Origin: a virus
DNA: 12,883 nt
UHGV virus genome: UHGV-1980648
Reading direction: 5' to 3' (one strand)
Position 1 is the stretch's first letter; every line of letters begins with the position of its first letter. Both the position numbers and the translations under genes were made by a program. Below, piece by piece: positions 303-12,805 of the stretch. Under the pieces are notes generated by a model that searched no databases, was not told the origin of the DNA, and was given only the letters and a program-made list of their open reading frames with translations.

Positions 303-764
303 CTACTGGTTACGTTTCTTTAGTGCCAGCATGTTCTCGAAGGCTTCCTCGTAGAGCTTGTTTAGTCCACGTAGCTGGTTAAGGAGTTTGGCTTTTTCTG
401 ACGCAGGTAGAATCTCGAAGAGGTTAAGTAACTCTGCCTGTTCTTCATTGACCAGCCTCCATCCTTTGCCTGAAAAGTTATCATCATAAGTATCTGATGA
501 TCTTACATAATTCATTAAGTCTTTAAGGTCTTCTCGAATGTCCTCTGGTTTTACCTTTAACAGAGCCGCAAATTTTAGCGCAGCGTCGGTATTTACCGGT
601 ATCTTGCCGTTCAGATACTGGCTAACGGTGCCTTGAGATTCGAATCCCAACAACTCAGCCGCCAGCTCTTGAGTCAGCTTCAGCTCTTTTTTTCTTGCAT
701 TCCATGCGGCTTTTAAATTCTTGCTCGCTTCTGGAGTTGCAATCACTTCGCGTGTTTTTTTCAT
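303..764 (-). CDS. Phage repressor, XRE-family HTH, CI-like but without an S24 peptidase (autocleavage) domain
   Basis: 153 aa; N-terminal HTH LTQELAAELLGFESQGTVSQYLNGK; C-terminal helical region with no Ala-Gly/Ser-Lys peptidase motifs; divergent from the Cro-like gene; start ATG at 764 has almost no leader, as with lambda cI from pRM. Confidence 0.75.
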   Translation of the reverse strand: MKKTREVIATPEASKNLKAAWNARKKELKLTQELAAELLGFESQGTVSQYLNGKIPVNTDAALKFAALLKVKPEDIREDLKDLMNYVRSSDTYDDNFSGKGWRLVNEEQAELLNLFEILPASEKAKLLNQLRGLNKLYEEAFENMLALKKRNQ

Positions 765-865: not shown

Positions 866-1147
866 TTGGCTATGAACTTAAGAGACTATTTAAAAGAGAA
901 ACATATCACCCAGCTACAGTTTGGGAAGCTAACGGGTTTATCTCAGGTGCATGTAAGTCGAGTGCTGGGGGGCTATGAAAGATTCAGCCCTGAAAAAGCA
1001 TTACGTGTTGCTGAAGTAACGAATTTCGAGGTTACACCTCATGAACTCCGGCCTGATATTTACCCGAATCCAACCGACGGCTTACCTGTTGGATTCAAGG
1101 CTAACACACCAAATGCATCGGAGTTGATTCATGAAAATCAGGCATGA
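866..1147 (+). CDS. Cro/YdaS-like HTH regulator
   Basis: 93 aa; HTH motif LQFGKLTGLSQVHVSRVLGG; first gene of the rightward operon, divergent from the repressor. Confidence 0.7.
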   Translation: MAMNLRDYLKEKHITQLQFGKLTGLSQVHVSRVLGGYERFSPEKALRVAEVTNFEVTPHELRPDIYPNPTDGLPVGFKANTPNASELIHENQA

Positions 1148-1556
1148 GCACATCCGCATGGCGATGAATGCCTGGGCGCATCCGGACGGTGAAAAAGTTC
1201 CGGCAGCTGAAATAACCCGGGCTTATTTTGAGCTTGGTATGACGTTCCCGGAATTATATGACGACAGCCATCCGGAAGCCCTGGCTCGCAATACCCAGAA
1301 AATTTTCCGCTGGGTGGAGAAAGACACTCCTGATGCGGTTAAAAAAATTCAGGCGTTGTTACCAGCGATCGAAAAAGCAATGCCGCCTCTGCTGGTGGCC
1401 CGAATGCGCAGCCACAGTTCAGCTTATTTTCGGGAGCTGGTGGAGACGCGGGAACGACTGGTGAGAGACGCTGATGATTTTGTCGCAGTGGCGATCGCTG
1501 GTTTCAACCAGATGAATCGTGGTGGCCCTGCAGGAAATATTGTGGCTGTGCATTGA
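1131..1556 (+). CDS. YdaT-like protein (CII-position regulator of Rac-type immunity regions)
   Basis: 141 aa; start overlaps the Cro-like stop by 17 nt; GGAG RBS; the Cro-like/YdaT-like/initiator order matches Rac ydaS-ydaT-ydaU from memory. Confidence 0.55.
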   Translation: MKIRHEHIRMAMNAWAHPDGEKVPAAEITRAYFELGMTFPELYDDSHPEALARNTQKIFRWVEKDTPDAVKKIQALLPAIEKAMPPLLVARMRSHSSAYFRELVETRERLVRDADDFVAVAIAGFNQMNRGGPAGNIVAVH

Positions 1557-1627
1557 CTCGCAATATTCATACCGGATCACTTCCGGCAATTTGTGAGTAA
1601 AAAGATTCGGTATCAGAAGAGGTGAGT

Positions 1628-2668
1628 ATGGCTAACGCCTGGCTCAGATTATGGCATGACATGCCAAATGACCCTAAGTGGCGAACAATTGCCAGGGTGT
1701 CAGGGCAGCCAATTGCAACAGTGATGGCAGTGTATATCCACCTTCTGGTGAGCGCGTCACGAAATGTCACGACATGTCACGGCGTGTCACTACGTGGTCA
1801 CATTGATGTCACGACGGAAGATTTAGCAAGTGCGCTTGATGTGACGGAAGAAGTAATTGATTCAATTTTACAGGCAATGCAGGGGCGGGTACTTGATGGA
1901 GATTTAATCACCGGATGGGAAAAACGCCAGGTACTGAAAGAGGACAATGGCAACGTTTCACAAACCGCGAAATCCCCGGCAGAGCGCAAGAGAGCGCAGC
2001 GCGAGAGGGAAAAATTACGAAAACAGAATGAGGGGTGTCACGACGAGTCACGCATATGTCACGACATGTCACGACGAGTCACGACAGATAAAGATACAGA
2101 TAAAGAATTAAACCCCACACATAACGCGCACGTGCGCGAGAGTGCTCCGACCAGTGAGTCGAGTGGTACGCCGTTGCAGGCAGCAGAACCTGCATCCCTG
2201 GATGGACTGAGCGAACCCATCGGGAAATTTCCGATGGTCGATGACTGGCATCCGTCGCCGGATTTTCGACGACGGGCTGCGTTGTGGGGGATGGCTTTGC
2301 CGGAGCCGGAATTTACACCTGCTGAACTTGCCGCTTTCCGGGACTACTGGGCAGCGGAGGGGAAAGTTTTCACGCAGGTTCAGTGGGAGCAGAAATTCGC
2401 CCGTCACGTAAATCACGTCAGGGCGCAGGTTAAGCCAGTCAGCAAGGGGGTAAACCATGCAGCAGCACCAGGTGGCACCGCATCACGGGCAGTTCAGGAA
2501 ATTCGGGCAGCACGTGAGCAGTGGGAACGTGAAAACGGATTTATCAGCGACGGAAACGGTCTGGAAGCTGTGGGAACTCATGGGGGAGGTTTATTCGAAC
2601 CGCTGGACCCAGAAGAACGGGGCCGCACCTTCGAAGCTCTGGATTGCACAGATTGGCGCGATGACTGA
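1628..2668 (+). CDS. Replication initiator / replisome organiser (functional O analogue, YdaU-like) with internal origin iterons
   Basis: ATG at 1628 with GAGGTGA RBS (the ORF track starts at a GTG at 1622); 346 aa; two iteron clusters inside the ORF; the next gene is a lambda-P-like helicase loader. Confidence 0.6.
   Translation: MANAWLRLWHDMPNDPKWRTIARVSGQPIATVMAVYIHLLVSASRNVTTCHGVSLRGHIDVTTEDLASALDVTEEVIDSILQAMQGRVLDGDLITGWEKRQVLKEDNGNVSQTAKSPAERKRAQREREKLRKQNEGCHDESRICHDMSRRVTTDKDTDKELNPTHNAHVRESAPTSESSGTPLQAAEPASLDGLSEPIGKFPMVDDWHPSPDFRRRAALWGMALPEPEFTPAELAAFRDYWAAEGKVFTQVQWEQKFARHVNHVRAQVKPVSKGVNHAAAPGGTASRAVQEIRAAREQWERENGFISDGNGLEAVGTHGGGLFEPLDPEERGRTFEALDCTDWRDD
1754..1815 (+). repeat. 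Iteron cluster 1: six GTCAC(GAC/GGC) repeats at roughly 10-11 bp spacing, putative ori
   Basis: gcgtcacgaaatgtcacgacatgtcacggcgtgtcactacgtggtcacattgatgtcacgac; helical-turn periodicity; located inside the initiator gene, as lambda ori is inside O. Confidence 0.6.
2037..2085 (+). repeat. Iteron cluster 2: five GTCACG(A)C repeats at 10-11 bp spacing
   Basis: gtcacgacgagtcacgcatatgtcacgacatgtcacgacgagtcacgac; same core as cluster 1, about 220 bp downstream. Confidence 0.6.
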
Positions 2669-3122
2669 GCAGCAAATCCGACAGGTCTGCCGCCAGTGCA
2701 TGGACCGCTGCCGGGCGGGTGAAACATGGCCTCCGGACCTGGCTGAGTTTGTGGCGCTGATTTCAGAAAGCGGGGCCAATCCATTTGGCCTGACGGTGGA
2801 TGCTGTGATGGAGGAGTACCGCCGCTGGCGTGATGAGTCCTGGCGATATGACGGAAGCGACAAATATCCGTGGCCTCAGCCTGTGCTGTACCACATCTGC
2901 CTCGAAATGCGTACCAGAGGGATTGAGCGCCAGATGACGCAGGGTGAGTTAAAACGACTTGCGGAACGGCAACTGACGAAATGGGCAAAGCATGTTGGTA
3001 ACGGGATGAGTGTTCCGCCAGTGCGACGACAACTGGAAGGGGCGAAACACCCGCAAGGGCCAACGCCAATTGAACGGCTGAAACAGGAATACGAACGCCG
3101 GAAGGCAGCTGGTTTTATTTGA
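2457..3122 (+). CDS. Lambda P-like replicative helicase loader
   Basis: Resemblance to lambda P by eye (ETWPPDLAEFVALISE...YPWPQPVLYHICLEMR...GELKRLAERQ against lambda P ...PSPGQFVAWCREE...YPWKSNAHYWLVTNLYQNMR...). ATG 2457 has an AAGGGGG RBS, but the ORF overlaps the initiator by 212 nt; alternative in-frame starts are 2580 and 2661, the latter forming ATGACTGA with the initiator stop. Confidence 0.7.
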   Translation: MQQHQVAPHHGQFRKFGQHVSSGNVKTDLSATETVWKLWELMGEVYSNRWTQKNGAAPSKLWIAQIGAMTEQQIRQVCRQCMDRCRAGETWPPDLAEFVALISESGANPFGLTVDAVMEEYRRWRDESWRYDGSDKYPWPQPVLYHICLEMRTRGIERQMTQGELKRLAERQLTKWAKHVGNGMSVPPVRRQLEGAKHPQGPTPIERLKQEYERRKAAGFI

Positions 3123-3155
3123 ATCTGAGAAACGATTTTGTCGGAGGAAATTTTA

Positions 3156-3926
3156 ATGGAAACCGTATTTGACGCACTGAAAGCAATGGGAAAAGCCACA
3201 TCGGTAGAACTGGCCGCGCGACTTGATATCAGTCGTGAAGAGGTTCTCAACGAGCTGTGGGAACTCAAAAGAAAAGGCGTCGTTGATAAAACTGGTCACA
3301 CCTGGTTTCTGGCTGGCGAAGGTGAATCCCGGGTAACCGAAGAGCGGCCAGTAAAATCTGAAGCACAGGATATGCTGACCGGGGAGGTCGAACAAAAAGT
3401 TACCGCAGACATGATGATTGAGTTTATCGGTCAGGATGGGGCTAAAACGTGTGAGGAACTGGCGGGTAAGTTCGGTGTCAGTACTCGCAAGGTTGCTTCC
3501 ACGCTGGCGGTGGTAACCGCAACGGGGCGGCTGGCACGCGTTAATCAGAACGGTAAATTTCGTTACTGCATGCCGGGCGATAATTTACCAGCAGAGCCGA
3601 AAGCCGCGCTGGTAACGGAAAGTGATGGTAAGGCCTTTCCTCAGCCAGCAGGTGCTGCGTTACCAGTCCGGGAAGCCGCAACACAGGAAGAAATTAAAAC
3701 AGAAACTGTGGCGGACATTGTGCAGTCGTTGCCATCGTTTACCGAAACGCAAGCAGATGAGCTGATTTTTCCGTCCCTGCGCAGGGCAAACCTGGCGCTG
3801 CGCAGGGCGAAAAGTGATGTTCAGAAGTGGGAGCGAGTCTGCGCCGCGCTGCGGGAGCTGAATAAACACCGGGATATTTTCAGTTCGATTGCTGATATTC
3901 CGGTTCATTCACCGACAACAAAGTGA
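3156..3926 (+). CDS. Hypothetical protein with two winged-helix-like segments (resembles the DUF1627-type proteins found after P in lambdoid prophages)
   Basis: ATG 3156 with GGAGG 7 nt upstream (the ORF track starts at a TTG at 3138); internal duplication [17 protein letters not shown] / [17 protein letters not shown]. Confidence 0.5.
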
Positions 3927-3941
3927 TCTCCGGAGGTGCTT

Positions 3942-4373
3942 ATGACAAGAGCATTTACACCAGAAGAGCGGGAAAAAATTAAGGGGCTGATCGTGGAATT
4001 CGTACGCCTTAACGGACGAGGCACGATTCGGCAGTTATCGGATGAAATTGGTGTCAGTCATGCGTCTGTCGGTCGTTTATGCATGGAGCTGGCCGCCAGT
4101 GGTGATGTTTACAATTCCGGTTACGGAGTATTCCCGTCTGAACAGGCTCGTAAGGACTGGCAAAATGCCCGCAAAAAACTCTCAAGGGCAAAGTCGAAGA
4201 AACCGGTTGTCGTTGATCCAGACCTTATCCGGGCATTACCAGATGGGGAAATACGGCGCTACGACAGACGCTACAACACAATTTGTCGCGAGTGCCGTAA
4301 CAGCGAAACGATGCAGCGTGTGCTGGCATTCTGGCGAGGGAGTGCAGAGGGATTGATGTTCTCCCCGTCGTGA
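3942..4373 (+). CDS. Hypothetical protein, N-terminal wHTH-like, Cys-containing C-terminus
   Basis: ATG 3942 with GGAGG 5 nt upstream (the ORF track starts at a GTG at 3936); 143 aa; segment IRQLSDEIGVSHASVGRLCMELAASG. Confidence 0.5.
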   Translation: MTRAFTPEEREKIKGLIVEFVRLNGRGTIRQLSDEIGVSHASVGRLCMELAASGDVYNSGYGVFPSEQARKDWQNARKKLSRAKSKKPVVVDPDLIRALPDGEIRRYDRRYNTICRECRNSETMQRVLAFWRGSAEGLMFSPS

Positions 4374-4405
4374 ATGACGGGGGCTTACGTGTTCAGAAAA
4401 GTGAT

Positions 4406-5080
4406 TCATATAGAGGCTGAATCTGATCTTTTTTGTTCACGTCTGGCTTCCACCATTGCAGGCAGAGTGAAGGCGTAGACTAAAAACATTTCGGTAAAAC
4501 TCAGGATCTGGCTTGCCTCAATTGGTGTGAAAACTTCATCTGTATGAACTGCTTTATTGGCATCAATTCGTACAATATGAGCCCATTCCTTCATCTGTTC
4601 AGTGATCAGGCCTTTTTTGTAAATCATCTGAATACGTTGCGACAGCGATTCTTTTCCTGCTTCATCGCCGAGCAGTTTTTTCGTGGAGATATCGAGGACT
4701 CTGCGACAAAGAATAACCACTGTGTCGTACCGCCTCCTCTGTAAATCCTCTTTTGCCTCAACAAAAGTACGGTCTGCAACCGGGGGCGTATATTCTGGTG
4801 CGGTAATTTTTTTGACCACAGGATAGATCTTGCGGAAACGGTACTGGCTATTTCCTGAAATCAGAATATCGAGGTCTTTTTTCTGGCTTTCCGCCATGGG
4901 ACCGTGATAGTGGTCTGATGGGATTTCAACAATAGCAACACCTCCTCGATGACAACTTCTGCATACAAAAGCGACGTTAAAAAAAGGTGTTTTTTCAATT
5001 TGTTTTTCGGCAAATGCCTCAATAACAGCTCGCTCTTTTAAACAGTGCGGGCATGTGATATCAAAGGAGACTAAACCCAT
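4406..5080 (-). CDS. Zinc-ribbon plus DUF4145-like domain protein; candidate defence / abortive-infection cargo gene
   Basis: 224 aa from the ATG at 5080 (GAGGAA RBS); N-terminal CPHC...x26...CRSC zinc ribbon; C-terminal helical region LSQRIQMIYKKGLITEQMKEWAHIVRIDANKAVH resembles DUF4145 from memory; opposite orientation to the flanking phage operons. Confidence 0.6.
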   Translation of the reverse strand: MGLVSFDITCPHCLKERAVIEAFAEKQIEKTPFFNVAFVCRSCHRGGVAIVEIPSDHYHGPMAESQKKDLDILISGNSQYRFRKIYPVVKKITAPEYTPPVADRTFVEAKEDLQRRRYDTVVILCRRVLDISTKKLLGDEAGKESLSQRIQMIYKKGLITEQMKEWAHIVRIDANKAVHTDEVFTPIEASQILSFTEMFLVYAFTLPAMVEARREQKRSDSASI

Positions 5081-5324
5081 GGATATTCCTCGCGAAATTA
5101 AAGAAATTAACGAAATCATTGAGGTTACTGATCGCCCCGAGTTTACCCTCATGCGTCGTTATGAAACAGGAACCGACGAACAAAAATACATCATGGTTGC
5201 AGCATTGGCTGTGATGGCGATAGAAAGGGAGCGAAGGGAAAAGGACGTAATGGTTATTCCTGAGAGAAATGATTCACCGGATTTGAGATGGCAGGAGCCG
5301 GAGTGGGATGTGGTAATCCGGTGA
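5079..5324 (+). CDS. Small acidic hypothetical protein (81 aa), divergent from the zinc-ribbon gene
   Basis: ATG 5079 with AAGGAGA RBS 8 nt upstream; its start codon overlaps the minus-strand start of the 4406-5080 gene within CATG; no recognisable domain. Confidence 0.3.
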   Translation: MDIPREIKEINEIIEVTDRPEFTLMRRYETGTDEQKYIMVAALAVMAIERERREKDVMVIPERNDSPDLRWQEPEWDVVIR

Positions 5325-5378
5325 TTGATATTTCTCTGGGGTAAAGCGCCGCCAGAATGACGGCGCGGTAGTGGAGAG

Positions 5379-5687
5379 TTAAACGAAGCGGATCTGGAGT
5401 TTTTTCCCTGTAGCACGGGCGAATTTTTTCAGTGTGGCAAATGATGGGCCGCTTGTACCTGATGCAAGATTGCTTTCCATTCTGGTTATCGCAGTCGCTT
5501 TTGTTCCCATACGTTCAGCAACTTCAGCCTGGGTTAAGCCAGCTTCTTTTCGTGCTGCCAGCATTTCATCAAGTAGTGCGAATTCATCGGCGATGGCGTC
5601 GTATTCTGCTTTTACTGCGGGGTTAGACAACATTTTTTCTACCATTTCATCGTGTGTCATGGTAGGTGGGGTACGTTTACCAGTCAT
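5379..5687 (-). CDS. XRE-family HTH antitoxin (HigA-like)
   Basis: 102 aa; HTH LTQAEVAERMGTKATAITRMESN; AAGGAGG RBS; overlaps the upstream toxin gene by 11 nt. Confidence 0.8.
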   Translation of the reverse strand: MTGKRTPPTMTHDEMVEKMLSNPAVKAEYDAIADEFALLDEMLAARKEAGLTQAEVAERMGTKATAITRMESNLASGTSGPSFATLKKFARATGKKLQIRFV

Positions 5688-6006
5688 GCTTAACCTCCTT
5701 CATTCTGGTTTCAGCTTTTCTAAGCTCGGCAGGTGGAGTTTTTTGCGTTTTCTTTACAAAGCTATGCAACATAATGATTCGCTTTCCTTTTAGCGTGCAG
5801 TAAAAAACACGCCCTATGCCTTCCGAGCCCTTAAGGCGGATTTCAAACAAACCGTCGCCAAATGCCTCTGTATGCGGGGAACCAAGATTAGCTCCGTAAA
5901 TACGCATTTTCTCCGTGTACCGAATGTACCGGGCTTGTAAGGTCTCAGGAAGAGAAAGGATCTCAGCTTCAACCTCGTCACTGTAGTATTCGATAATGTA
6001 GTTCAT
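5677..6006 (-). CDS. RelE/ParE-superfamily toxin, phage Gp49-like / HigB-like
   Basis: 109 aa from ATG 6006 (alternative ATG at 6018); MNYIIEYYSDEVEAEILSLPETLQARY...FGDGLFEIRLKG...RVFYCTLKGKRIIMLHSFVKKTQKTP is typical of this family; toxin-first order with HTH antitoxin. Confidence 0.75.
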   Translation of the reverse strand: MNYIIEYYSDEVEAEILSLPETLQARYIRYTEKMRIYGANLGSPHTEAFGDGLFEIRLKGSEGIGRVFYCTLKGKRIIMLHSFVKKTQKTPPAELRKAETRMKEVKHDW

Positions 6007-6048
6007 GAGAGTAAACATAACAAATTTGTTATATACATTCAAGGTATG

Positions 6049-6078
6049 TTGACGACAACACATATCCGGGATTATATT
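6049..6078 (+). promoter_or_regulatory. Rightward sigma70-type promoter restarting the nin-region operon
   Basis: TTGACG (6049-6054), 18-nt spacer, TATATT (6073-6078); its -35 overlaps the -35 of a divergent minus-strand promoter for the toxin-antitoxin operon (TTGTCG, complement of 6053-6058, with -10 TATATA at complement of 6030-6035). Confidence 0.4.
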
Positions 6079-6140
6079 CTTCGCACGCCAGCAAAATCTG
6101 GCGTCGGGATTTGCACCCCGGATATTCAACCGCGACAGAC

Positions 6141-6162
6141 ACACGCCGCGAGCGTGTTTTTT
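6141..6162 (+). terminator. Intrinsic terminator or attenuator in the leader upstream of the ORF6N gene
   Basis: ACACGC-cgcga-GCGTGT followed by TTTTTTGTT; preceded by two further hairpins at 6086-6103 and 6104-6120. Confidence 0.5.
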
Positions 6163-6326
6163 GTTGTCGTAAGCACACGCACATCTGAATTATGGTGGGG
6201 CGTATGGGGGAGCCGAAAGGCTCGCCGGTTGGTTGATCCGGTAGTGCAAACCCTGTACGTCTCACCACCCAAAGATTTGCACCTGACGGTGGTGATAGTT
6301 AAATTCATCAACCAGAGGGCGTTGTC

Positions 6327-7028
6327 ATGGCGACTCAAATTTCCGTTGAAACTCTTTCCCCAATTGCCTACAACCAGATCCCCGTAATTACTACAGAATT
6401 ATTGGCGCAATTGTATGGCACTGAAACAGTCAATATAAAAATGAATTTTTCCCGTAACTCTGCGCGATTTGTACAGGGAAAACATTTCTTTAAGTTGGAA
6501 GGGAATGAACTACGTGAGTTTAAGCACAGACTATCTTTAAGCGAGTCTGTTAGCCGCGAGGTAACAGAAAGTTACTCTGTGAAAATCGCCCGCAATGTTC
6601 GCTCCCTCATCCTCTGGACAGAACGCGGCGCAGCCCGTCACGCAAAAATGCTCGAAACCGATCAGGCGAGGGAAGTGTTCGAAAAACTGGAAGACTGCTA
6701 TTTCAGCCAGGGAAAAACAGCACCAACCGAACAGCAGCCGCAGATTCAGCCACAATTCACAGCCGAGGAAATCATCCTCCTTTGCTACATGCAACTCTGG
6801 ATGGAAAAAGCCCAGGACCTTAGCAAGCAGCTGTACCCCATAATGAAAGAGCTGAACTCCTCATACACGAACAAGCTGTATGACATTGCGTTTGAGACCA
6901 TCTACATGGTGACGAAGAACAGAGACGCGCTACTAAGGGAGGTAACACGTCTCGACATGTCAAGTTCCGTTATCCAGCGGGCCATGCCAATGCTGAAAAG
7001 CCTGCGGGCAAGACAATTTGAATTCTGA
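6327..7028 (+). CDS. ORF6N-domain protein, putative antirepressor-like regulator
   Basis: 233 aa; N-terminal IPVITTELLAQLYGTETVNIKMNFSRNSARFVQGKHFFKLEGNELREFK...LWTERGAARHAKMLETDQAREVFEKLEDCYF fits the ORF6N pattern from memory; GAGGG RBS. Confidence 0.55.
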   Translation: MATQISVETLSPIAYNQIPVITTELLAQLYGTETVNIKMNFSRNSARFVQGKHFFKLEGNELREFKHRLSLSESVSREVTESYSVKIARNVRSLILWTERGAARHAKMLETDQAREVFEKLEDCYFSQGKTAPTEQQPQIQPQFTAEEIILLCYMQLWMEKAQDLSKQLYPIMKELNSSYTNKLYDIAFETIYMVTKNRDALLREVTRLDMSSSVIQRAMPMLKSLRARQFEF

Positions 7029-7033
7029 AACTA

Positions 7034-7058
7034 AAGGAGCTTCGGCTCCTTTTTTGTT
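7034..7058 (+). terminator. Intrinsic terminator between the ORF6N gene and ninB
   Basis: AAGGAGC-ttcg-GCTCCTT followed by TTTTTTGTT. Confidence 0.55.
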
Positions 7059-7082
7059 GGGAAAATCCAGTGAGAGGGAATA

Positions 7083-7493
7083 ATGAACCAGACTATCTTC
7101 CTCCGAAGTAAGCAGCAGCAACAATTCGCCATTAACGCCATCCTTGCAACAACTCTCGATAAAGACAAACCCGTTACGATCCGTATCACCGATTACAAGC
7201 GTAATCTCGCTCAAAATGCAAAATTTCACGCGATGGTCGCTGATATATCCCGCCAGGTTAAGTGGTGCGGCAGGGGGCTAAAACCAGAACAGTGGAAAGT
7301 TTTGTTAATCAGCGGTCATGCCGTGGCGACAAAACAGGAAGCTGATGTTTTGCCAGGTCTTGAAGGTGAATACGTCAATATCCGCGAAAGCAGTGCGCAA
7401 ATGAGCGTGAAGCGTATGGCAAGCCTGATTGAGTACACAACATCCTGGGCCGTGGATCAGGGTGTCAGATTTACCGACAGGAGGTACGAATGA
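7083..7493 (+). CDS. ninB: NinB (Orf-family recombination mediator)
   Basis: 136 aa; [30 protein letters not shown] aligns by eye with lambda NinB NRKLWACLGDVSRQVEWHGRWLDAESWKCV. Confidence 0.85.
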
Positions 7494-7612
7494 GACGACA
7501 GCGACGAAGCATCACCGATATCGTCTGTGAAAACTGCAATTACCTTCCAACCAAACGCTCCCGAAATAAACCCAGGCCAGTCCCCAAAGAATCTGATGTT
7601 AAAAACTTCAAC
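7490..7612 (+). CDS. ninE: NinE-like small protein, 3' end lost in the assembly gap
   Basis: ATGA overlap with the ninB stop; [41 protein letters not shown] runs straight into the N run; identity from memory of lambdoid NinE and the ninB-ninE-ybcO-rusA synteny. Confidence 0.5.
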
Positions 7613-7625
7613 NNNNNNNNNNNNN
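7613..7625. other. Assembly gap (13 N)
   Basis: Run of n characters in the sequence. Confidence 1.
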
Positions 7626-7694
7626 TATCCGGTGGCTAAGGCGTCGAGCAAGATTTAATTGTCACTCCGGATAGCCTACTGCATGAGGAATAAG

Positions 7695-7988
7695 ATGATG
7701 ACAAACCTACGCAAAGAAGCGCGCGGCAGAGAATGCCAGGTACGGATTTATGGCGTATGCAATGGCAACCCTGAAACTACAGTTCTGGCGCATTACCGAA
7801 TGGCTGGAATTTGCGGAACGGGAACAAAGCCAGATGATCTGTTGGCTGCATGGGCCTGTAGTGACTGCCATAATGAAATCGATCGCCGTACTCGCATTCT
7901 CGACAACAACGACGCCAGACTTTACCACCTGGAAGGCGTGATCAGGACGCTGGCGATATTGCTGAAGGAGGGAAAGATTAAGTCATGA
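7695..7988 (+). CDS. YbcO-like protein (DUF1364 family, putative nuclease)
   Basis: ATG 7695 with GAGGA RBS (the ORF track starts at a TTG at 7659); RKEARGRECQVRIYGVCNGNPETTVLAHYRMAGICGTGTKPDDLLAAWACSDCHNEIDRRT matches the YbcO family from memory. Confidence 0.75.
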   Translation: MMTNLRKEARGRECQVRIYGVCNGNPETTVLAHYRMAGICGTGTKPDDLLAAWACSDCHNEIDRRTRILDNNDARLYHLEGVIRTLAILLKEGKIKS

Positions 7989-8347
7989 ATGAATATGAGT
8001 TTGTGCTTCCCTGGCCGCCGACGGTGAATACCTACTGGCGAAGACGGGGAAGCCAGTACTACATCAGCGATAAAGGCCAGAAATACCGAAAAGACGTACA
8101 GCAAATCATCCGGCAACTCAGATTAGACATTTTCACTAAATCACGACTTCGCATCACAATTATTGCTGAACCACCAGATTCCCGCCGTCGCGACCTCGAT
8201 AACATCCTGAAAGGTTTACTCGACTCTCTTATCCACGCCGGATTTGCGGAAGACGACGTGCAATTCGATGACATTCGCGTAATTCGCGGCGTGAAAGTGC
8301 TTGGCGGTAGAGTGGGGATAAAAATCACCGAACTGGAGAACATATGA
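7985..8347 (+). CDS. rusA: RusA Holliday-junction resolvase
   Basis: 120 aa; LPWPP...RRRDLDNILKGLLDSLIHAGF...DDVQFDDIRV matches RusA (LPWPPSNN...[21 protein letters not shown]); ATGA overlap with the preceding gene. Confidence 0.9.
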   Translation: MNEYEFVLPWPPTVNTYWRRRGSQYYISDKGQKYRKDVQQIIRQLRLDIFTKSRLRITIIAEPPDSRRRDLDNILKGLLDSLIHAGFAEDDVQFDDIRVIRGVKVLGGRVGIKITELENI

Positions 8348-8544
8348 ACGCCACAATTCAAACAATACCGGAATTGCTTATCCAGGCACGAGGCAATATG
8401 ACTGAAGTTTCACGAAAACTGAACTGTAATCGTGCTACGGTCAGAAAATATGTCGGTGATAAAGAAGGCAAACGGCACGCCGTCGTCAACGGTGTCCTTA
8501 TGGTTCATCGTGGATGGGATAAGGGGAAAGCTACTGATGCGTGA
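8344..8544 (+). CDS. ninH: NinH-like protein
   Basis: 66 aa; TIPELLIQARGNMTEVSRKLNCNRATVRKYVGDKEGKRHAVVNGVLMVHRGW closely parallels lambda NinH from memory; ATGA overlap with rusA. Confidence 0.8.
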   Translation: MNATIQTIPELLIQARGNMTEVSRKLNCNRATVRKYVGDKEGKRHAVVNGVLMVHRGWDKGKATDA

Positions 8545-8779
8545 TATTCAGCAGGTGCCTGAACGCATGGCTTTATTCAGGTCGTCTGGAAAAGCGCATG
8601 AGCAGCGTAATAGCGGAGTTCATGGCGAAGAGTATATGAACAGATTATTCGAATGCTATATGAGACTGAAGCACGGAGATCGCTATGACCTGACACGTGA
8701 TGCTGACGGTTTCTACTGCCGTGAAGTTGTGAAACGAATGTTTGAAGTGTGGTGTCATTGTAAAGGATGGGGGCTGTGA
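8537..8779 (+). CDS. Hypothetical Cys-rich protein, translationally coupled to the next gene
   Basis: ATG 8537 (MRDIQQV...) with AAGGGGA RBS, overlapping the ninH stop; 80 aa; its stop overlaps the next start as TGATG. Confidence 0.4.
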   Translation: MRDIQQVPERMALFRSSGKAHEQRNSGVHGEEYMNRLFECYMRLKHGDRYDLTRDADGFYCREVVKRMFEVWCHCKGWGL

Positions 8780-9393
8780 TGCGGCTAACCCCAGTATTCG
8801 GCATGGTTAACTTTATTAATGATGCTCATTTCCGCCGCATATGGAGGCATCCGAAGAAAATCATTAACTCTCGTCAGAAAGCATGGGTTCACTACATGCT
8901 ACAGGTATGGGGAAATGTTAACGCTGGTGATGATTCTCCTTGTGGTGCAATTAACGTTATTGGGCGACTGATGATTCGCAGTCAGTGGAGCGATGACAAA
9001 GCTAAGCAGATTGAGTCTGTTGTCATGCGTCTGTATGAAGAAGACGGACTACGTGGAGATGAACTCCATCAGAAAGCCCGAGAACTGGTCATCCCTCAGT
9101 CATCGGCAGGTAATATCATTGCTCTCGCCAAAGAATCCGATGATGCTGCTTTCGTTGAACGTGTGATGGTTGAGACCTTTCATCGTGAAAGCCCTGTCCG
9201 TGATGTAGCTATTAGGCGATATTGCAATCGCGACAGCACGCAAGATATCGCCAGGATGATTTCTCAGATAACAGGAGTTGATATTCAGTATTGCCGGAGG
9301 CGGGTCGTGTGGTGCGAGAGGGTCCTTGATTCAGAAATGTTTTATGCAATGAAGCGAGAATTGGAGAAAGAACTTCTAGTGATTGCTGGATGA
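8779..9393 (+). CDS. Putative late-gene antiterminator (Q-position protein); identity by position only
   Basis: 204 aa from ATG 8779 (the ORF track starts at 8767); last gene before a pR'-like promoter and tR'-like terminator; no clear similarity to lambda Q by eye. Confidence 0.35.
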   Translation: MRLTPVFGMVNFINDAHFRRIWRHPKKIINSRQKAWVHYMLQVWGNVNAGDDSPCGAINVIGRLMIRSQWSDDKAKQIESVVMRLYEEDGLRGDELHQKARELVIPQSSAGNIIALAKESDDAAFVERVMVETFHRESPVRDVAIRRYCNRDSTQDIARMISQITGVDIQYCRRRVVWCERVLDSEMFYAMKRELEKELLVIAG

Positions 9394-9417
9394 TGCAAAA
9401 TATTTTTTGTAAATGCG

Positions 9418-9446
9418 TTGCTTTCGAGAAATGAAAGTAGTATGTT
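9418..9446 (+). promoter_or_regulatory. Late promoter candidate (pR'-like)
   Basis: TTGCTT (9418-9423), 17-nt spacer, TATGTT (9441-9446), starting 25 bp after the stop of the Q-position gene. Confidence 0.4.
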
Positions 9447-9553
9447 TTGTGTATGCTCGGAGCAAAAGCGCACTGAGAAGCGAAAGAGAAATCCTGATTT
9501 ACCTCGGTCGTCGATAATATTTAGGATCGGCATACTGGCTAGATTAGGTAAAG

Positions 9554-9584
9554 GCCTCGGCAGAAATGTCGGGGCTTTTTGTTT
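9554..9584 (+). terminator. tR'-like intrinsic terminator
   Basis: Hairpin 9554-9575 (GCCTCGGC-agaaat-GTCGGGGC, two G-U pairs) followed by TTTTTGTTTG. Confidence 0.5.
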
Positions 9585-9657
9585 GCACAACAGGTAAGAG
9601 CATTGAACCCGCAGACCTCGTGGAATTGGTGAAAGGTGTGCGCAGTGCTCTTATCGT

Positions 9658-9784
9658 TGTGGTGAAGCTCAATGGCGAGCTAGCAGACAGGCGACTGTGA
9701 AAATACTAGTCATGTAGCGGATCGCCGCGCGTATTGTAATCGGCAGCGCACCGATGGGAGCTGGTTCGATTCCGGCCGCCACAA
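9658..9784 (+). other. tRNA-like element: degenerate or insert-bearing tRNA, possibly an ileX/ileZ-like remnant
   Basis: Canonical T-arm GCTGG-TTCGATT-CCGGC at 9760-9776; 3' acceptor CGCCACA pairs with TGTGGTG at 9658-9664; D-arm-like GCTC-aatggc-GAGC; AGGCGACT resembles the E. coli tRNA-Ile2 anticodon stem; no canonical anticodon arm and length about 127 nt. Confidence 0.25.
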
Positions 9785-9926
9785 TCCAAACTGAGCCGTA
9801 GCCTCTGGGTGTCCTGAATTCATCAGTGATAGTTACGCTGCGGCCTTCTACATACGATTTTTGTGAAAAGCGGGTGGCAAGAGGCTGCGAAATTTTTAAA
9901 TACCTCACAATTCCACAGCTTGATGA

Positions 9927-10123
9927 TTGTCTGGCTGCCGGAGAATTTGTTAAAAATTGCATCGCGTGGTGAATCCCCCTCAGCGGCGGGGCATCTGGCA
10001 AAGTGTATGATCCAGCGAACATGCAAATTCAGTAGCCAGGCTGAATTTACCGGGAGGCACCTGGCACCATGCGACAGACAGAAATTAGGCTATACTTCAG
10101 CCCCTCTCCGGAGGGGCTTTTCT
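9927..10123 (+). repeat. Paralogous unit A: promoter-like box, structured core, intrinsic terminator (candidate small RNA gene)
   Basis: TTGTCT (9927-9932), 17-nt spacer, TTAAAAAT; core closed by CGCGTGGTG (9963-9971) pairing with CACCATGCG (10065-10073); internal hairpin AAATTCAG/CTGAATTT; terminator at 10099-10123. Confidence 0.5.
10099..10123 (+). terminator. Intrinsic terminator of unit A
   Basis: GCCCCTC-tccg-GAGGGGC followed by TTTTCT. Confidence 0.6.
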
Positions 10124-10312
10124 GTGCAGGATGTGTCACAGTTTCCTGAATTCTGAGTACTGTCCTGTTACTCAGGGTGCTATATTTTCTGACGTGATGA
10201 AAGTCTGCCGGAAGGCGGAACGTATCGGAAATGACCCAGTAGAGAAAACGTTGACTCAGATACCGATGCTGAGTTACCGGGAAACCGGCATCACATGACC
10301 GCTATCCTTCCA

Positions 10313-10335
10313 GGCTCGCTCCGGCGGGCCTTTTT
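10313..10335 (+). terminator. Intrinsic terminator, a third copy of the terminator module with a covarying stem
   Basis: GGCTCGC-tccg-GCGGGCC followed by TTTTT; flanking sequence (gctatccttccag...) is homologous to the 3' ends of units A and B. Confidence 0.55.
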
Positions 10336-10395
10336 ACTGCAGAAAACAGTTTTCCCGTAAAATGCCACGTTACTCACAATTCAGGCTGGCGATTA

Positions 10396-10606
10396 TTGTC
10401 TGGCCAGCGGGAAGTTTGTTAAAAAAATATGGCATGGTGAATCCCCCTGTGCGGAGGGGCATATCAGCGACAGGTGTTTGGTCACACCCCTTATCCTTTC
10501 TGGTGCGGGTTCAGGTGCTGATACTGAACTCACCGGGAGGCACCCTGCACCATGCATGAACGGTACATAGCGCTACTCTCCAGCCCCTCTCCGGAGGGGC
10601 TTTCTT
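10396..10606 (+). repeat. Paralogous unit B: promoter-like box, structured core, intrinsic terminator (candidate small RNA gene)
   Basis: TTGTCT (10396-10401), 17-nt spacer, TTAAAAAAATAT; core closed by GCATGGTG (10432-10439) pairing with CACCATGC (10548-10555); internal hairpin GTTCAG/CTGAAC; shares blocks TGGTGAATCCCCCT and CACCGGGAGGCACC with unit A. Confidence 0.5.
10582..10606 (+). terminator. Intrinsic terminator of unit B
   Basis: GCCCCTC-tccg-GAGGGGC followed by TTTCTTGTTG. Confidence 0.6.
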
Positions 10607-10613
10607 GTTGGAT

Positions 10614-10643
10614 AAAAAAAAGCCCGCGCCGGGAAGCGCGGGT
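10614..10643 (-). terminator. Opposite-facing hairpin with A8 tract (possible leftward terminator, back to back with the unit B terminator)
   Basis: AAAAAAAA then CCCGCGC-cgggaa-GCGCGGG; on the minus strand this reads hairpin followed by a T8 run. Confidence 0.35.
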
Positions 10644-10843
10644 GGCAAGGAATAAACAACAAAACGTGAAGTGATCAATTTTCAGCTGGCGAATAATACC
10701 TGATAGTAATCACTCTGCGCAACTGTATGGTCTTTTTCGTATTGCGGGCTGTAGTCATCCTCCTGTTTCTGAACCCTTGTCCATGACTGACGTCAGCCCG
10801 CACCTTATCTTGATTGCATACACTATCCCTGCCGGGAGGAATA

Positions 10844-12805
10844 ATGGCATTTAAACACTATGACGTGGTCAGGGCATCATCGCCGTCAGACCTCGCAGGA
10901 AAACTGACGCAAAAACTGAAGGAAGGCTGGCAACCCTATGGTAGTCCGATTATCTCAAACGCGGGTTATGGTGCTGAATTTATCCAGGCTATAGTCGCTG
11001 AAGGGGATATGACCTCTCCGGTAGTTTCACCGGGGGGAGATGGTACCCGGACTGTTGTTGTTGAACCAGAATATTACTTTGTCATTGCGCTGGCCGGACA
11101 GTCAAACGGTATGGCGTATGGTGAAGGGCTTCCGCTGCCGGAGACATATGACCGTCCGGACCCGCGTATTAAACAGCTGGCGCGTCGCAGCACTGTCACG
11201 CCGGGTGGTGCGTCCTGTAACTACAATGACATTATTCCTGCGGACCACTGCCTGCATGATGTTCAGGATTTGAGTAAGTTTTCACACCCGAAAGCTAGCG
11301 CAGCTCAGTATGGATGCGTGGGGCAGGGATTACATATCGCGAAGAAATTGTTGCCGTTTATTCCGGCGAATGCCGGTATTCTTCTGGTTCCGTGCTGCCG
11401 TGGTGGTTCTGCATTTTTGGCGGGCGATGAAGGTACCTTCAGCGAATCCACCGGCGCAAGCGAGACCTCGGCACGCTGGGGTGTAGATAAGCCACTGTAC
11501 AAGGACCTGCTTACCCGTACTCAGGCCGCACTGAAGGCTAACCCTAAAAATATTCTGCTTGCAGTGGTCTGGATGCAGGGCGAGTTTGATTTGAAACAGG
11601 GTGCATACGCCACTCAGCCGGGGCTGTTTGATTCCATGGTGGAAAAATATCGTTCTGACCTGTCGGAATTCGGAGGTCAGTGTCTCGGGGGCTCTCCGTC
11701 ATCGGTTCCCTGGATTTGTGGCGACACGACCTACTACTGGAAGCAGACTTATTCTTCGCAATACGATGCGGTGTATGGTGCATACAAGACGAAATCCGCA
11801 AAAAAAATCTTCTTTGTGCCGTTTATGACGGATGAAAACGGGCGAAATGTGGGTACCAACGAGCCGTCAGAAGATCCGGATGTTGCGGATATTGGGTATT
11901 ACGGAGCCGGTGGTCGAACGGACGCCAAAACCTGGACGACGGCCGACCGTAAAACGCATTTTGGATCATGGGCACGTCGTGGGATTATTTCCGACCGTCT
12001 GGCAACGGCGATTCTTGTGCATGCCGGGAGAACCGCTGAATTCATTACCGGAAAACAGCCTGATACGGTGAAGCCCACCGGACCTTCCGGTGAAGGTACG
12101 GAGAGAGAGCCGGAAGCCCCGGTCAGTAACCGAACCCTGATGAGTCTGCTGGCGTCCGGCGAAGACCTGGCATCACAGGGCTGGCGCTATTATCACAAAC
12201 CGGCGAGCGGAGACAATGTTAACAAAAACATTGCTGAAGCGGTGGTCAGTGATGCGGGGGCTACGGGAGGTAAGGCCCTGCAACTGAATAAACCGGAAAA
12301 CCACATCTGGTTTCTGGAGCATGATGCAGCCGGACAGGGAGTGGAGTTACTGAAGAAGGGGGGACGTGTGAGCGTACGGTTTAAGTTGCCGGGTTCACTG
12401 GTGCCGAATCGGTTTGCCCTGGGCATTTACTGGCAGTTGTCGTCCCTGCCGGAGGGAGTGACGCTGGCAGAGGAAGGCAACGACATGCTGATGTCCTTCT
12501 TCCTGCAGACGGATGCGACGAACCTGAACGCGATGTACCACAAGAAGCCGAATGCGAAGCTGGATACGTTCGGGGTCTTTGATAACGGATGGCACACACT
12601 GGCTTTTGAGTTTGCCGGAAACAACAGCATTCAGGTGACGCCGGTACTGGATGAGAAACGGGGGACGCCGTTCACACTGGTGAAATCTCCGGCATCAGGG
12701 GCGGCGGACAAACTGCAACTGACAGGCATATCAAAGGCGGCGACATATACGCTGCTGATTGACAGTGTGAAGGTGGAAGTGAACAACGCGGATGCCGCGG
12801 CATGA
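10844..12805 (+). CDS. nanS-p: Prophage NanS-p-like sialate O-acetylesterase (N-terminal DUF1737-like domain, SGNH/SASA esterase core, C-terminal extension)
   Basis: ATG 10844 with GGGAGGA RBS (the ORF track starts at 10814); 653 aa; MAFKHYDVVRASSPSDLAGKLTQKLKEGWQPYGSPI N-terminus; LAGQSNGMAYGEG block typical of sialate O-acetylesterases; location downstream of Q and the late terminators matches Stx-type prophages, from memory. Confidence 0.8.
   Translation: MAFKHYDVVRASSPSDLAGKLTQKLKEGWQPYGSPIISNAGYGAEFIQAIVAEGDMTSPVVSPGGDGTRTVVVEPEYYFVIALAGQSNGMAYGEGLPLPETYDRPDPRIKQLARRSTVTPGGASCNYNDIIPADHCLHDVQDLSKFSHPKASAAQYGCVGQGLHIAKKLLPFIPANAGILLVPCCRGGSAFLAGDEGTFSESTGASETSARWGVDKPLYKDLLTRTQAALKANPKNILLAVVWMQGEFDLKQGAYATQPGLFDSMVEKYRSDLSEFGGQCLGGSPSSVPWICGDTTYYWKQTYSSQYDAVYGAYKTKSAKKIFFVPFMTDENGRNVGTNEPSEDPDVADIGYYGAGGRTDAKTWTTADRKTHFGSWARRGIISDRLATAILVHAGRTAEFITGKQPDTVKPTGPSGEGTEREPEAPVSNRTLMSLLASGEDLASQGWRYYHKPASGDNVNKNIAEAVVSDAGATGGKALQLNKPENHIWFLEHDAAGQGVELLKKGGRVSVRFKLPGSLVPNRFALGIYWQLSSLPEGVTLAEEGNDMLMSFFLQTDATNLNAMYHKKPNAKLDTFGVFDNGWHTLAFEFAGNNSIQVTPVLDEKRGTPFTLVKSPASGAADKLQLTGISKAATYTLLIDSVKVEVNNADAAA

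Follow-up and report, generated by a model that had tools for sequence, protein, structure and literature searches.

A variable site before the isrK-C4-ant module of a lambdoid prophage is probably an accessory hotspot with a RAZR-like gene and a HigBA operon

We analyzed a stretch of 12,883 nucleotides of the virus genome UHGV-1980648 (hereafter, the window), which is the early-right region of a lambdoid prophage that resembles Shiga toxin (Stx) phages. Within the window, positions ~4333-6046 are probably an accessory ("moron") hotspot, which holds two independent cassettes that run leftward and is bordered on its left by the end of the replication module and on its right by the isrK-C4-ant module (two small RNAs followed by an antirepressor gene). 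One of the cassettes is a RAZR-like, putatively defensive gene and the other is a HigBA toxin-antitoxin (TA) operon. All of the substantial genes from 866 to 9393 are on the plus strand except for three minus-strand genes between DUF977 (end 4373) and ant (start 6327; Table 1), which confirms the initial annotation of a backward block in an otherwise rightward early operon. The gene identities that it gave (zinc-ribbon/DUF4145-like, antitoxin, and toxin) agree with the Pfam matches to DUF4145, HTH_3, and Gp49, and NCBI records of near-identical E. coli prophages and of the phages PhiR5_2, 75/02 Stx, and POCJ13 have these three genes as well.

Aligning the block to related prophages gave sharp limits for the insertions. 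Homology to the relatives breaks at 4331 (4330-4332), at 5367, and at 6046/6047, and the variable block consists of two modules that are separately exchangeable. At the left edge, homology is lost at 4330-4332 in prophages that have the DUF1627-DUF977 flank but do not have the block. This edge is 40 nt before the stop codon of DUF977, and the final ~14 codons of DUF977 (from ~4331) move together with the island. The middle breakpoint adjoins a hairpin at 5346-5366: strain O22:H8 154 retains 3819-5367, which includes DUF977, the DUF4145 gene, a small open reading frame (ORF), and the hairpin. In the same strain, 5368-6046 is swapped for another 1-kb cassette and homology is back at 6047. The breakpoint at 6046/6047 lies inside the 6-bp gap that separates the −35 box of the TA promoter from the −35 box of the isrK promoter. 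The reading of the block as inserted cargo is supported, but its proposed extent (4380-6330) was too far to the right: by comparison to the relatives, the actual limits are ~4333-6046, and 6047-6330 is part of the conserved isrK-C4-ant module. A search for direct or inverted repeats that might be insertion scars at the edges of the island gave only short matches at the level expected by chance.

The composition of the block also differs from that of its flanks. The GC content is 45.0% in the block, 51.7-55% to the left, and 47.2% to the right, and the GC content at third codon positions (GC3) is 38-39% in the RAZR-like gene and in higA versus 50-55% in the neighbouring genes. As for prevalence, among 5,426 complete E. 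coli genomes, 36 have the DUF4145 (RAZR-like) module and 13 have the TA module in full; the RAZR-like gene occurs together with HigBA of the window type in 19 of the 36 genomes that carry the gene. The carriers of the block include PhiR5_2 (recorded host K-12 MG1655) and 75/02 Stx. In other relatives, the content 3' of DUF977 is QueH and hokD, DUF4406/Ea22-like genes, or runs of small rightward ORFs. Hence, the same three genes are not in essentially all of the relatives, and the claim that the block is variable cargo rather than core survives this comparison. Among phages that have both flanks, we found polymorphism both in presence or absence and in content, as expected for a prophage moron or accessory hotspot.

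Could the block be ordinary core early-region content that was merely inverted, instead of acquired? Within the small clade of carriers, it is 96-100% conserved and its place is constant. However, the homology breakpoints are sharp, relatives with the same flanks have unrelated content at the same site, cassettes are exchanged among relatives, the prevalence is very low, and GC3 deviates. We consider this explanation to be extremely improbable. The breakpoints, the unrelated content at the same site, the rarity of the block, the replacement of the TA pair, and the lower GC and GC3 instead argue for horizontally acquired cargo, as was originally suggested.

The two cassettes are exchanged independently of each other. 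The RAZR-like gene is paired with other TA cassettes in two loci (L002 and L036), and the TA pair of the window type is found without the RAZR-like gene in two others (L015 and L042). In related phages, we found four TA families in the slot beside the isrK promoter. The alternative occupants are a PF05015 HigB with a VapI-type HigA; a remnant of a PF06296 RelE with an MqsA-like helix-turn-helix (HTH) protein, beside a rightward Fic/Doc gene; and TumE/HVO_A0114. Across 63 related loci from IMG/VR, a leftward TA cassette lies directly against the isrK promoter in 21, and no TA is beside the isrK-ant module in ~30. The initial annotation had also proposed that the block is a small defence island, and as a functional unit this is not supported: each of the two modules is exchanged without the other, the homologues of the DUF4145 gene in other genera are solitary, and we did not find that this gene and the TA pair occur together as steadily as is expected of a defence island. 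Their co-location reflects a shared insertion hotspot.

Some other relatives bear on how the slot is used. In E. coli FDAARGOS_943 (L015, 4502-5129), a HigBA pair whose higA is 87% identical to that of the window is found directly before the ant module in a different phage backbone, where it follows NinB, a methyltransferase, and NinE. As this pair is beside the ant module even in another backbone, the TA cassettes seem to be tied to the ant-module side and not to the replication side. Also, ~40 complete E. coli genomes, O157:H7 strains among them, lack most of the TA pair but carry a remnant of 71 bp from the 3' end of higA (5377-5447), with 94-96% identity. In O22:H8 154, this remnant sits within the alternative cassette. 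It looks like the scar of an earlier cassette exchange. In the IMG/VR loci L020-L024, L033, and L056, this site, ~1.6-3.2 kb upstream of ant, has alternative cargo that comprises two elements: a rightward gene of the Fic/Doc family (Pfam expectation value E 3.1e-11) with a 74-aa ORF before it, and a leftward MqsA-like HTH antitoxin with a PF06296 RelE toxin that seems to be degenerate. We also considered the prophage TA system PaaR2-PaaA2-ParE2 (PMC8630535) as an alternative cassette, but it is located in the immunity region instead (L007).

Each of the components is of a known kind: a HEPN effector of the RAZR family, a HigBA TA pair, a moron hotspot, and a leader of the immI/isrK type. Self-contained cassettes between conserved phage genes are familiar from rexAB, sieB, and ren of lambda, from BstA beside the repressor, and from the P2 and P4 hotspots (PMC7067206, PMC9122126, PMC9519451). 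The block shares with the known prophage morons and defence hotspots its antisense orientation, its presence/absence polymorphism, its deviating composition, and its predicted defence or TA content, and it has a candidate promoter of its own for higBA. Antisense placement is a recognised signature of morons (PMC7067206). It differs from them in its site, between DUF977 and the isrK-C4-ant module. The literature that we searched did not describe this site as a hotspot, which is a weak negative.

The gene at 4406-5080 had been called uncharacterised. It belongs to the RAZR/PD-T7-4 family, and RAZR itself is an experimentally validated anti-phage RNase. PD-T7-4 was recovered from E. coli by functional selection (Vassallo et al., 2022, PMC9519451) and was recently renamed RAZR, for ring-activated zinc-finger RNase, a zinc-finger-HEPN protein (Zhang et al., 2026, PMC13017515). 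RAZR forms a 24-mer around ring-shaped phage proteins (recombinase or portal) and cleaves RNA non-specifically, so that the infection is aborted; its R146 and H154 are essential, and its specificity is set by the zinc-finger domain (PMC13017515). DUF4145 is a HEPN family with known zinc-ribbon fusions (PMC3710099). Like RAZR, the window protein is encoded by a single gene and is ~220 aa long, with an N-terminal Cys4 zinc ribbon (C10, C13, C40, and C43; CPHC...CRSC) that a conserved linker joins to a C-terminal DUF4145/HEPN domain; this domain has an R-x7-H motif (R171-x7-H179, corresponding to R146/H154 of RAZR). The relatives of both proteins are often in prophages. We expect that translation begins at the ATG at 5080, which has a GAGG that resembles a Shine-Dalgarno (SD) sequence 7 nt 5' of it; the upstream ATG at 5152 is unlikely to be the start.

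Comparisons of family alignments support this relationship. The Cys4 and R-x7-H residues are invariant across 35 homologues (alignment A1). In the sets of 35 and 88 homologues, the four cysteines are invariant or nearly so, and they align with CPHC...CSHC of RAZR. R171 and H179 are at least 90% conserved in the 88-member alignment (A3) and align exactly with RIVGNQAVH of RAZR. When the 88-member profile is compared to the RAZR family with hhalign, the probability is 98.3% (E 2.1e-14) over 170 columns, and these columns are co-linear and extend from both CxxC pairs through the linker into the HEPN domain. The best match of the same profile in the PDB is the RAZR cryo-EM chain 9y9c_OA (E 3.7e-6), and it covers both the zinc ribbon and the linker plus HEPN domain. 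Of 35 family members, 18 match the PADLOC model for PD-T7-4, the best of them with E 2.8e-7, and the family also has weak matches to RPB9/TFIIS zinc ribbons, which have been reported for RAZR too. By these sequence comparisons, the window protein is in a distant subfamily of the RAZR/PD-T7-4 family and is not an orthologue of RAZR. The family is large, with 210 clusters at 50% identity for E<=1e-30 and 3,355 for E<=1e-3.

Several observations weigh against reading the gene as a RAZR-like defence gene. On its own, the window protein matches the PADLOC PD-T7-4 model with E 2.2e-3, which is below the usual thresholds. Similarly, BLASTP of the window protein against RAZR, whose sequence was rebuilt from database fragments, gives 24% identity and E 2e-5. 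A single-sequence phmmer search of the PDB with the DUF4145 protein gave no match, and RAZR was reached by family profiles only. The zinc-ribbon domain, which sets the trigger in RAZR, is not alignable pairwise. PHROGs labels the group of the RAZR-like protein (phrog_1305) as "DNA binding protein." Defence has been demonstrated for RAZR, and for the window subfamily this role is suggested by analogy; its function could have diverged from that of RAZR. Finally, we found no sigma-70-like promoter with at least 9/12 matches within 300 bp upstream of the gene. As no promoter match lies upstream and the hairpin after higA has a tail of UUU only, the RAZR-like gene may need read-through from the TA operon or a non-consensus promoter.

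Given the PHROGs label, the lack of a clear promoter of its own, and the fact that active phages carry the gene, the RAZR-like protein might serve the lytic programme of its carrier or counter-defence (RNA turnover, host takeover on induction, or DNA binding) rather than protection of the lysogen. We think that this is unlikely. The gene is antisense to the lytic operon at three unrelated prophage positions, which suits expression in the lysogen, and its R-x7-H motif and Cys4 are invariant, as in RAZR. Also, most related phages lack the gene, which makes it dispensable for growth, and in one strain it is disrupted by an IS3 element. As for the other positions, the homologues in Enterobacter and Citrobacter prophages are lone genes that are antisense to their neighbours; one distant homologue is beside xis/int and another has the lysis genes on one side and the terminase gene on the other. 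Such placement is typical of morons.

The disrupted copy is in E. coli S1-CAM-02-A (NZ_CP145707.1, ~2541974-2545162), where an IS3-family element splits the RAZR-like gene and the TA pair is whole; in this strain, the match to the module is limited to window positions ~4706-5340. Among the relatives of RAZR, the entries P0084-P0203 are mostly called as proteins of 146-168 aa without the first CxxC of the zinc ribbon, and a frameshifted entry (P0123) has the full N-terminus. The short relatives are either widespread mis-called starts or a genuine shorter form. The HEPN and zinc-finger protein DS-38 from DefensePredictor (WP_001313577.1), which is also a validated system, was excluded as a match, as its gene of 1101 nt encodes ~366 aa and it is a different protein.

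The start codon of the RAZR-like gene overlaps that of a conserved ORF of 81 codons on the opposite strand, and it is doubtful that this small ORF is coding. All of the homologues that we found are 92-100% identical, and the substitutions at codon positions 1/2/3 (0/3/1, 0/3/3, and 0/4/5) are too few and show no third-position excess. The small ORF stays with the RAZR-like gene when the TA pair is swapped, and it is retained alone in STEC1590. The stretch may instead be a regulatory region of the RAZR-like gene.

The second cassette has the features of a HigBA system: a toxin with the RelE/ParE fold, a cognate HTH antitoxin, and the toxin gene first. The toxin gene overlaps the antitoxin gene by 11 nt, and NCBI names the toxin "type II toxin-antitoxin system RelE/ParE family toxin." The comparison of higA to its homologue in L015 gives 5, 6, and 29 differences at codon positions 1, 2, and 3, which is a strong third-position bias. 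A perfect 16-bp palindrome, ATAACAAATTTGTTAT, at 6017-6032 overlaps the −10 box of the candidate higBA promoter and is presumed, from its sequence and placement, to be the operator for HigA. The ATG of higB at 6006 is 7 nt after the candidate −10 box and has no SD sequence; as the start is so close to the −10 box, this suggests that the higB mRNA is leaderless or nearly so. (The annotated start of the toxin gene varies among records, with lengths of 231, 264, or 330 nt.) The TA operon probably ends at a weak terminator, the hairpin directly after the higA stop codon. The pair resembles the HigBA type, including HigBA of S. pneumoniae (PDB 6af3), in gene order, in its overlapping frames, in its RelE/ParE toxin and XRE-HTH antitoxin, and in having a palindrome in its candidate promoter. 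In contrast to the solved system, to which the similarity is low (E 7e-5 and 1.4e-3), the toxin mRNA is apparently leaderless, and the pair is located in a phage hotspot, where it faces away from the promoter of a small RNA. The activity of the window pair is predicted from sequence.

Whether the TA pair is defensive is a separate question. It could instead be an addiction or stabilisation module that makes it costly for the cell to lose the prophage, or it could be a local regulator that is coupled by its divergent promoter to isrK-C4-ant, in which case the RAZR-like gene alone would be defensive. Four TA families occupy the exact slot that faces away from the isrK promoter, where the two −35 boxes are 6 bp apart, and the same HigBA is beside the ant module in a different backbone (L015). 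Also, PADLOC does not identify a specific known defence TA: for the toxin and antitoxin, there is only a partial match to NsnC (E 4.9e-8) besides matches to generic HTH models. More generally, a role in defence has not been demonstrated for many of the TA systems of prophages, which further weakens the case for defence. On the other hand, ~30 of the 63 loci have isrK-ant without an adjoining TA, so a TA is not needed for the regulation of ant. Furthermore, TAs of the RelE/ParE class of type II can act in abortive infection, and these roles are not exclusive. We view a TA pair without a defence role as quite possible, if still the weaker option, and we retain the broader reading of the HigBA operon as a cargo cassette that could act in addiction, defence, or both.

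Beyond the 6046/6047 breakpoint, the sequence is conserved. The initial annotation reported a fresh rightward promoter after the block; the site is real, and it is the already known promoter of the isrK/C4 leader of the ant operon, which faces away from the candidate higBA promoter. The match to isrK begins 7 nt after the isrK promoter and includes a terminator hairpin (6141-6157) that is followed by a run of T. A match to the a1b1-type target of C4 (6072-6124) overlaps isrK, with a score of 42.2 bits for RF03163, below the gathering score of 46.7. Within C4, 6223-6237 is 80% complementary (over 15 nt) to 6307-6321, which is the SD region of ant (ATG at 6327; inverted repeat I10), and this fits translational control of the C4 type. 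The isrK-C4 leader is directly before ant in 56 of the 63 related IMG/VR loci, so isrK-C4-ant is a conserved neighbour and not cargo. The same layout is known from immI of P1 (c4-ant) and from isrK-anrP of Gifsy-1 (PMC4825925), and in lysogens of Gifsy-1 the transcription of IsrK is strong (PMC7067206). In particular, immI of P1 and P7 (c4-icd-ant), isrK-orf45-anrP of Gifsy-1, and the window module all have a promoter, an isrK-type leader with a terminator, C4, and an antirepressor gene, with C4 complementary to the ribosome-binding region of the antirepressor gene. The window differs in that the 55 nt between C4 and ant do not contain an ORF of the size of icd or orf45, and in that the a1b1 match is just under the Rfam threshold. 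We did not find a LexA box near the isrK/ant promoter.

How might the cassettes work? In a lysogen, the promoter pR would be repressed and both cassettes would be transcribed leftward from their own promoters. By analogy to RAZR, the RAZR-like protein would be present as an inactive oligomer; its zinc ribbon would bind a large ring-shaped protein of an incoming phage, and its HEPN site (R171/H179) would then cut RNA non-specifically and abort the infection. As the zinc ribbon is strongly diverged from that of RAZR, it probably has a different range of triggers. HigA would repress its own promoter at the 16-bp palindrome and keep HigB in check, and HigBA might act in prophage addiction and/or in a defence that is set off by the shut-off of transcription. 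Upon induction, antiterminated rightward transcription would cross the cassettes in antisense and may damp both.

A bolder version of this proposal is that the gap between DUF977 and isrK is an undescribed exchange hotspot for defence and TA genes of lambdoid (Stx-type) phages, in which cassettes are swapped together with their promoters at fixed breakpoints (one at the hairpin at 5346-5366, the other in the 6 bp that separate the back-to-back −35 boxes); that the diverged zinc ribbon senses a different ring trigger; and that antisense placement silences the RNase and the TA pair on induction, which would keep the phage from triggering its own abortive-infection effector with its portal. We put forward this combination tentatively, and we doubt that all of it will hold.

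The RAZR-like gene is a candidate that would be cheap to test and that would carry the newly solved mechanism of RAZR into a large and distant subfamily. Because the zinc ribbon that is expected to sense the trigger differs in this subfamily, it bears on which ring-shaped phage assemblies are sensed by bacteria. The subfamily is present in phages of the Shiga-toxin type, including Shigella phage 75/02 Stx, and could shape the superinfection of pathogenic lysogens. The sharply bounded TA slot at the isrK promoter is a clear natural case of cassette exchange, and it could be mined for cargo. The general picture of prophages as carriers of defence genes is unchanged.

Table 1. Features of the window, in order of position.
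Feature	Position	Strand	Evidence or remark
HTH repressor-like gene	303-764	-	
YdaS/Cro-like gene	866-1147	+	
YdaT/CII-like gene	1131-1556	+	
O-like gene	1622-2668	+	
P	ends 3122	+	
DUF1627 gene	3138-3926	+	
DUF977 gene (left flank of block; closes the replication-side module)	3936-4373	+	Pfam DUF977 E 1.1e-25
RAZR/PD-T7-4-family gene, 224 aa	4406-5080	-	Pfam DUF4145 E 4.9e-9
81-codon ORF, phrog_8371, divergent from the RAZR-like gene	5079-5324	+	phrog_8371 E 6.8e-56
GC-rich hairpin directly after higA stop	5346-5366	-	Fold -19.1 kcal/mol, z -4.2; UUU tail only
higA-type antitoxin gene (XRE/HTH_3), 102 aa	5379-5687	-	Pfam HTH_3 E 3.6e-11; PDB 6af3_B HigA E 1.4e-3
higB-type toxin gene (Gp49/DUF891/PF05973, RelE/ParE superfamily), 109 aa	5677-6006	-	Pfam Gp49 E 4.6e-27; PDB 6af3_A HigB E 7.1e-5
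Candidate higBA promoter	6014-6042	-	-35 TTGAAT 6042-6037, 17-nt spacer, extended -10 TGtTATGTT 6022-6014 (sequence reading and script scan)
isrK promoter	6049-6078	+	TTGACG-18-TATATT, 10/12 matches
isrK small RNA/leader	6085-6162	+	Rfam RF01394, full length, 75.4 bits (gathering score 50)
C4 antisense RNA	6188-6272	+	Rfam RF01695, full length, 74.4 bits (gathering score 45)
ORF6N/P22AR_C antirepressor gene, ant (right flank; first gene where the rightward run resumes)	6327-7028	+	Pfam ORF6N E 1.8e-20; P22_AR_C E 2.3e-7; phrog_377 Ant E 5.2e-81
NinB	7083-7493	+	
NinE, then DUF1364	3' of NinB	+	
RusA	7985-8347	+	
NinH	3' of RusA	+	
Q-like antiterminator gene	8767-9393	+	
SASA/NanS-p esterase gene	10814-12805	+	

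The top public matches to the window are a prophage of E. coli G1/2, with 97.4% identity over 4200-6500 and 95.4% identity over 3136-12055, phage PhiR5_2, and the Shigella phages 75/02 Stx and POCJ13. The window is a mosaic. From 1 to ~3900, it is ~97-99% identical to Rac-type prophages of E. coli EC10 and 042, and from 3136 on it is 95-98% identical to the G1/2 prophage and PhiR5_2, whose replication genes differ (they are of the DnaC type). The joint is at ~3136-3930, in or near the DUF1627 gene, and the left arm comprises the immunity genes (YdaS/YdaT) and the O/P replication genes. We searched the window for tRNA genes, as a signature of tRNA/integrase sites, and found none. The DUF977 neighbour has been labelled "LygF," and we set this label aside, as the literature that is reached through it is unrelated.

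Finally, the window contains two full-length copies of the STnc100 small RNA family (RF02076), at 9934-10127 (138.7 bits) and at 10403-10612 (129.9 bits), and a weak third copy at 10163-10338. All of the copies are flanked by the Q gene on the left and the NanS-p-type esterase gene on the right. The interval between these two genes is the place of stx in Stx phages, and here it has no stx genes.

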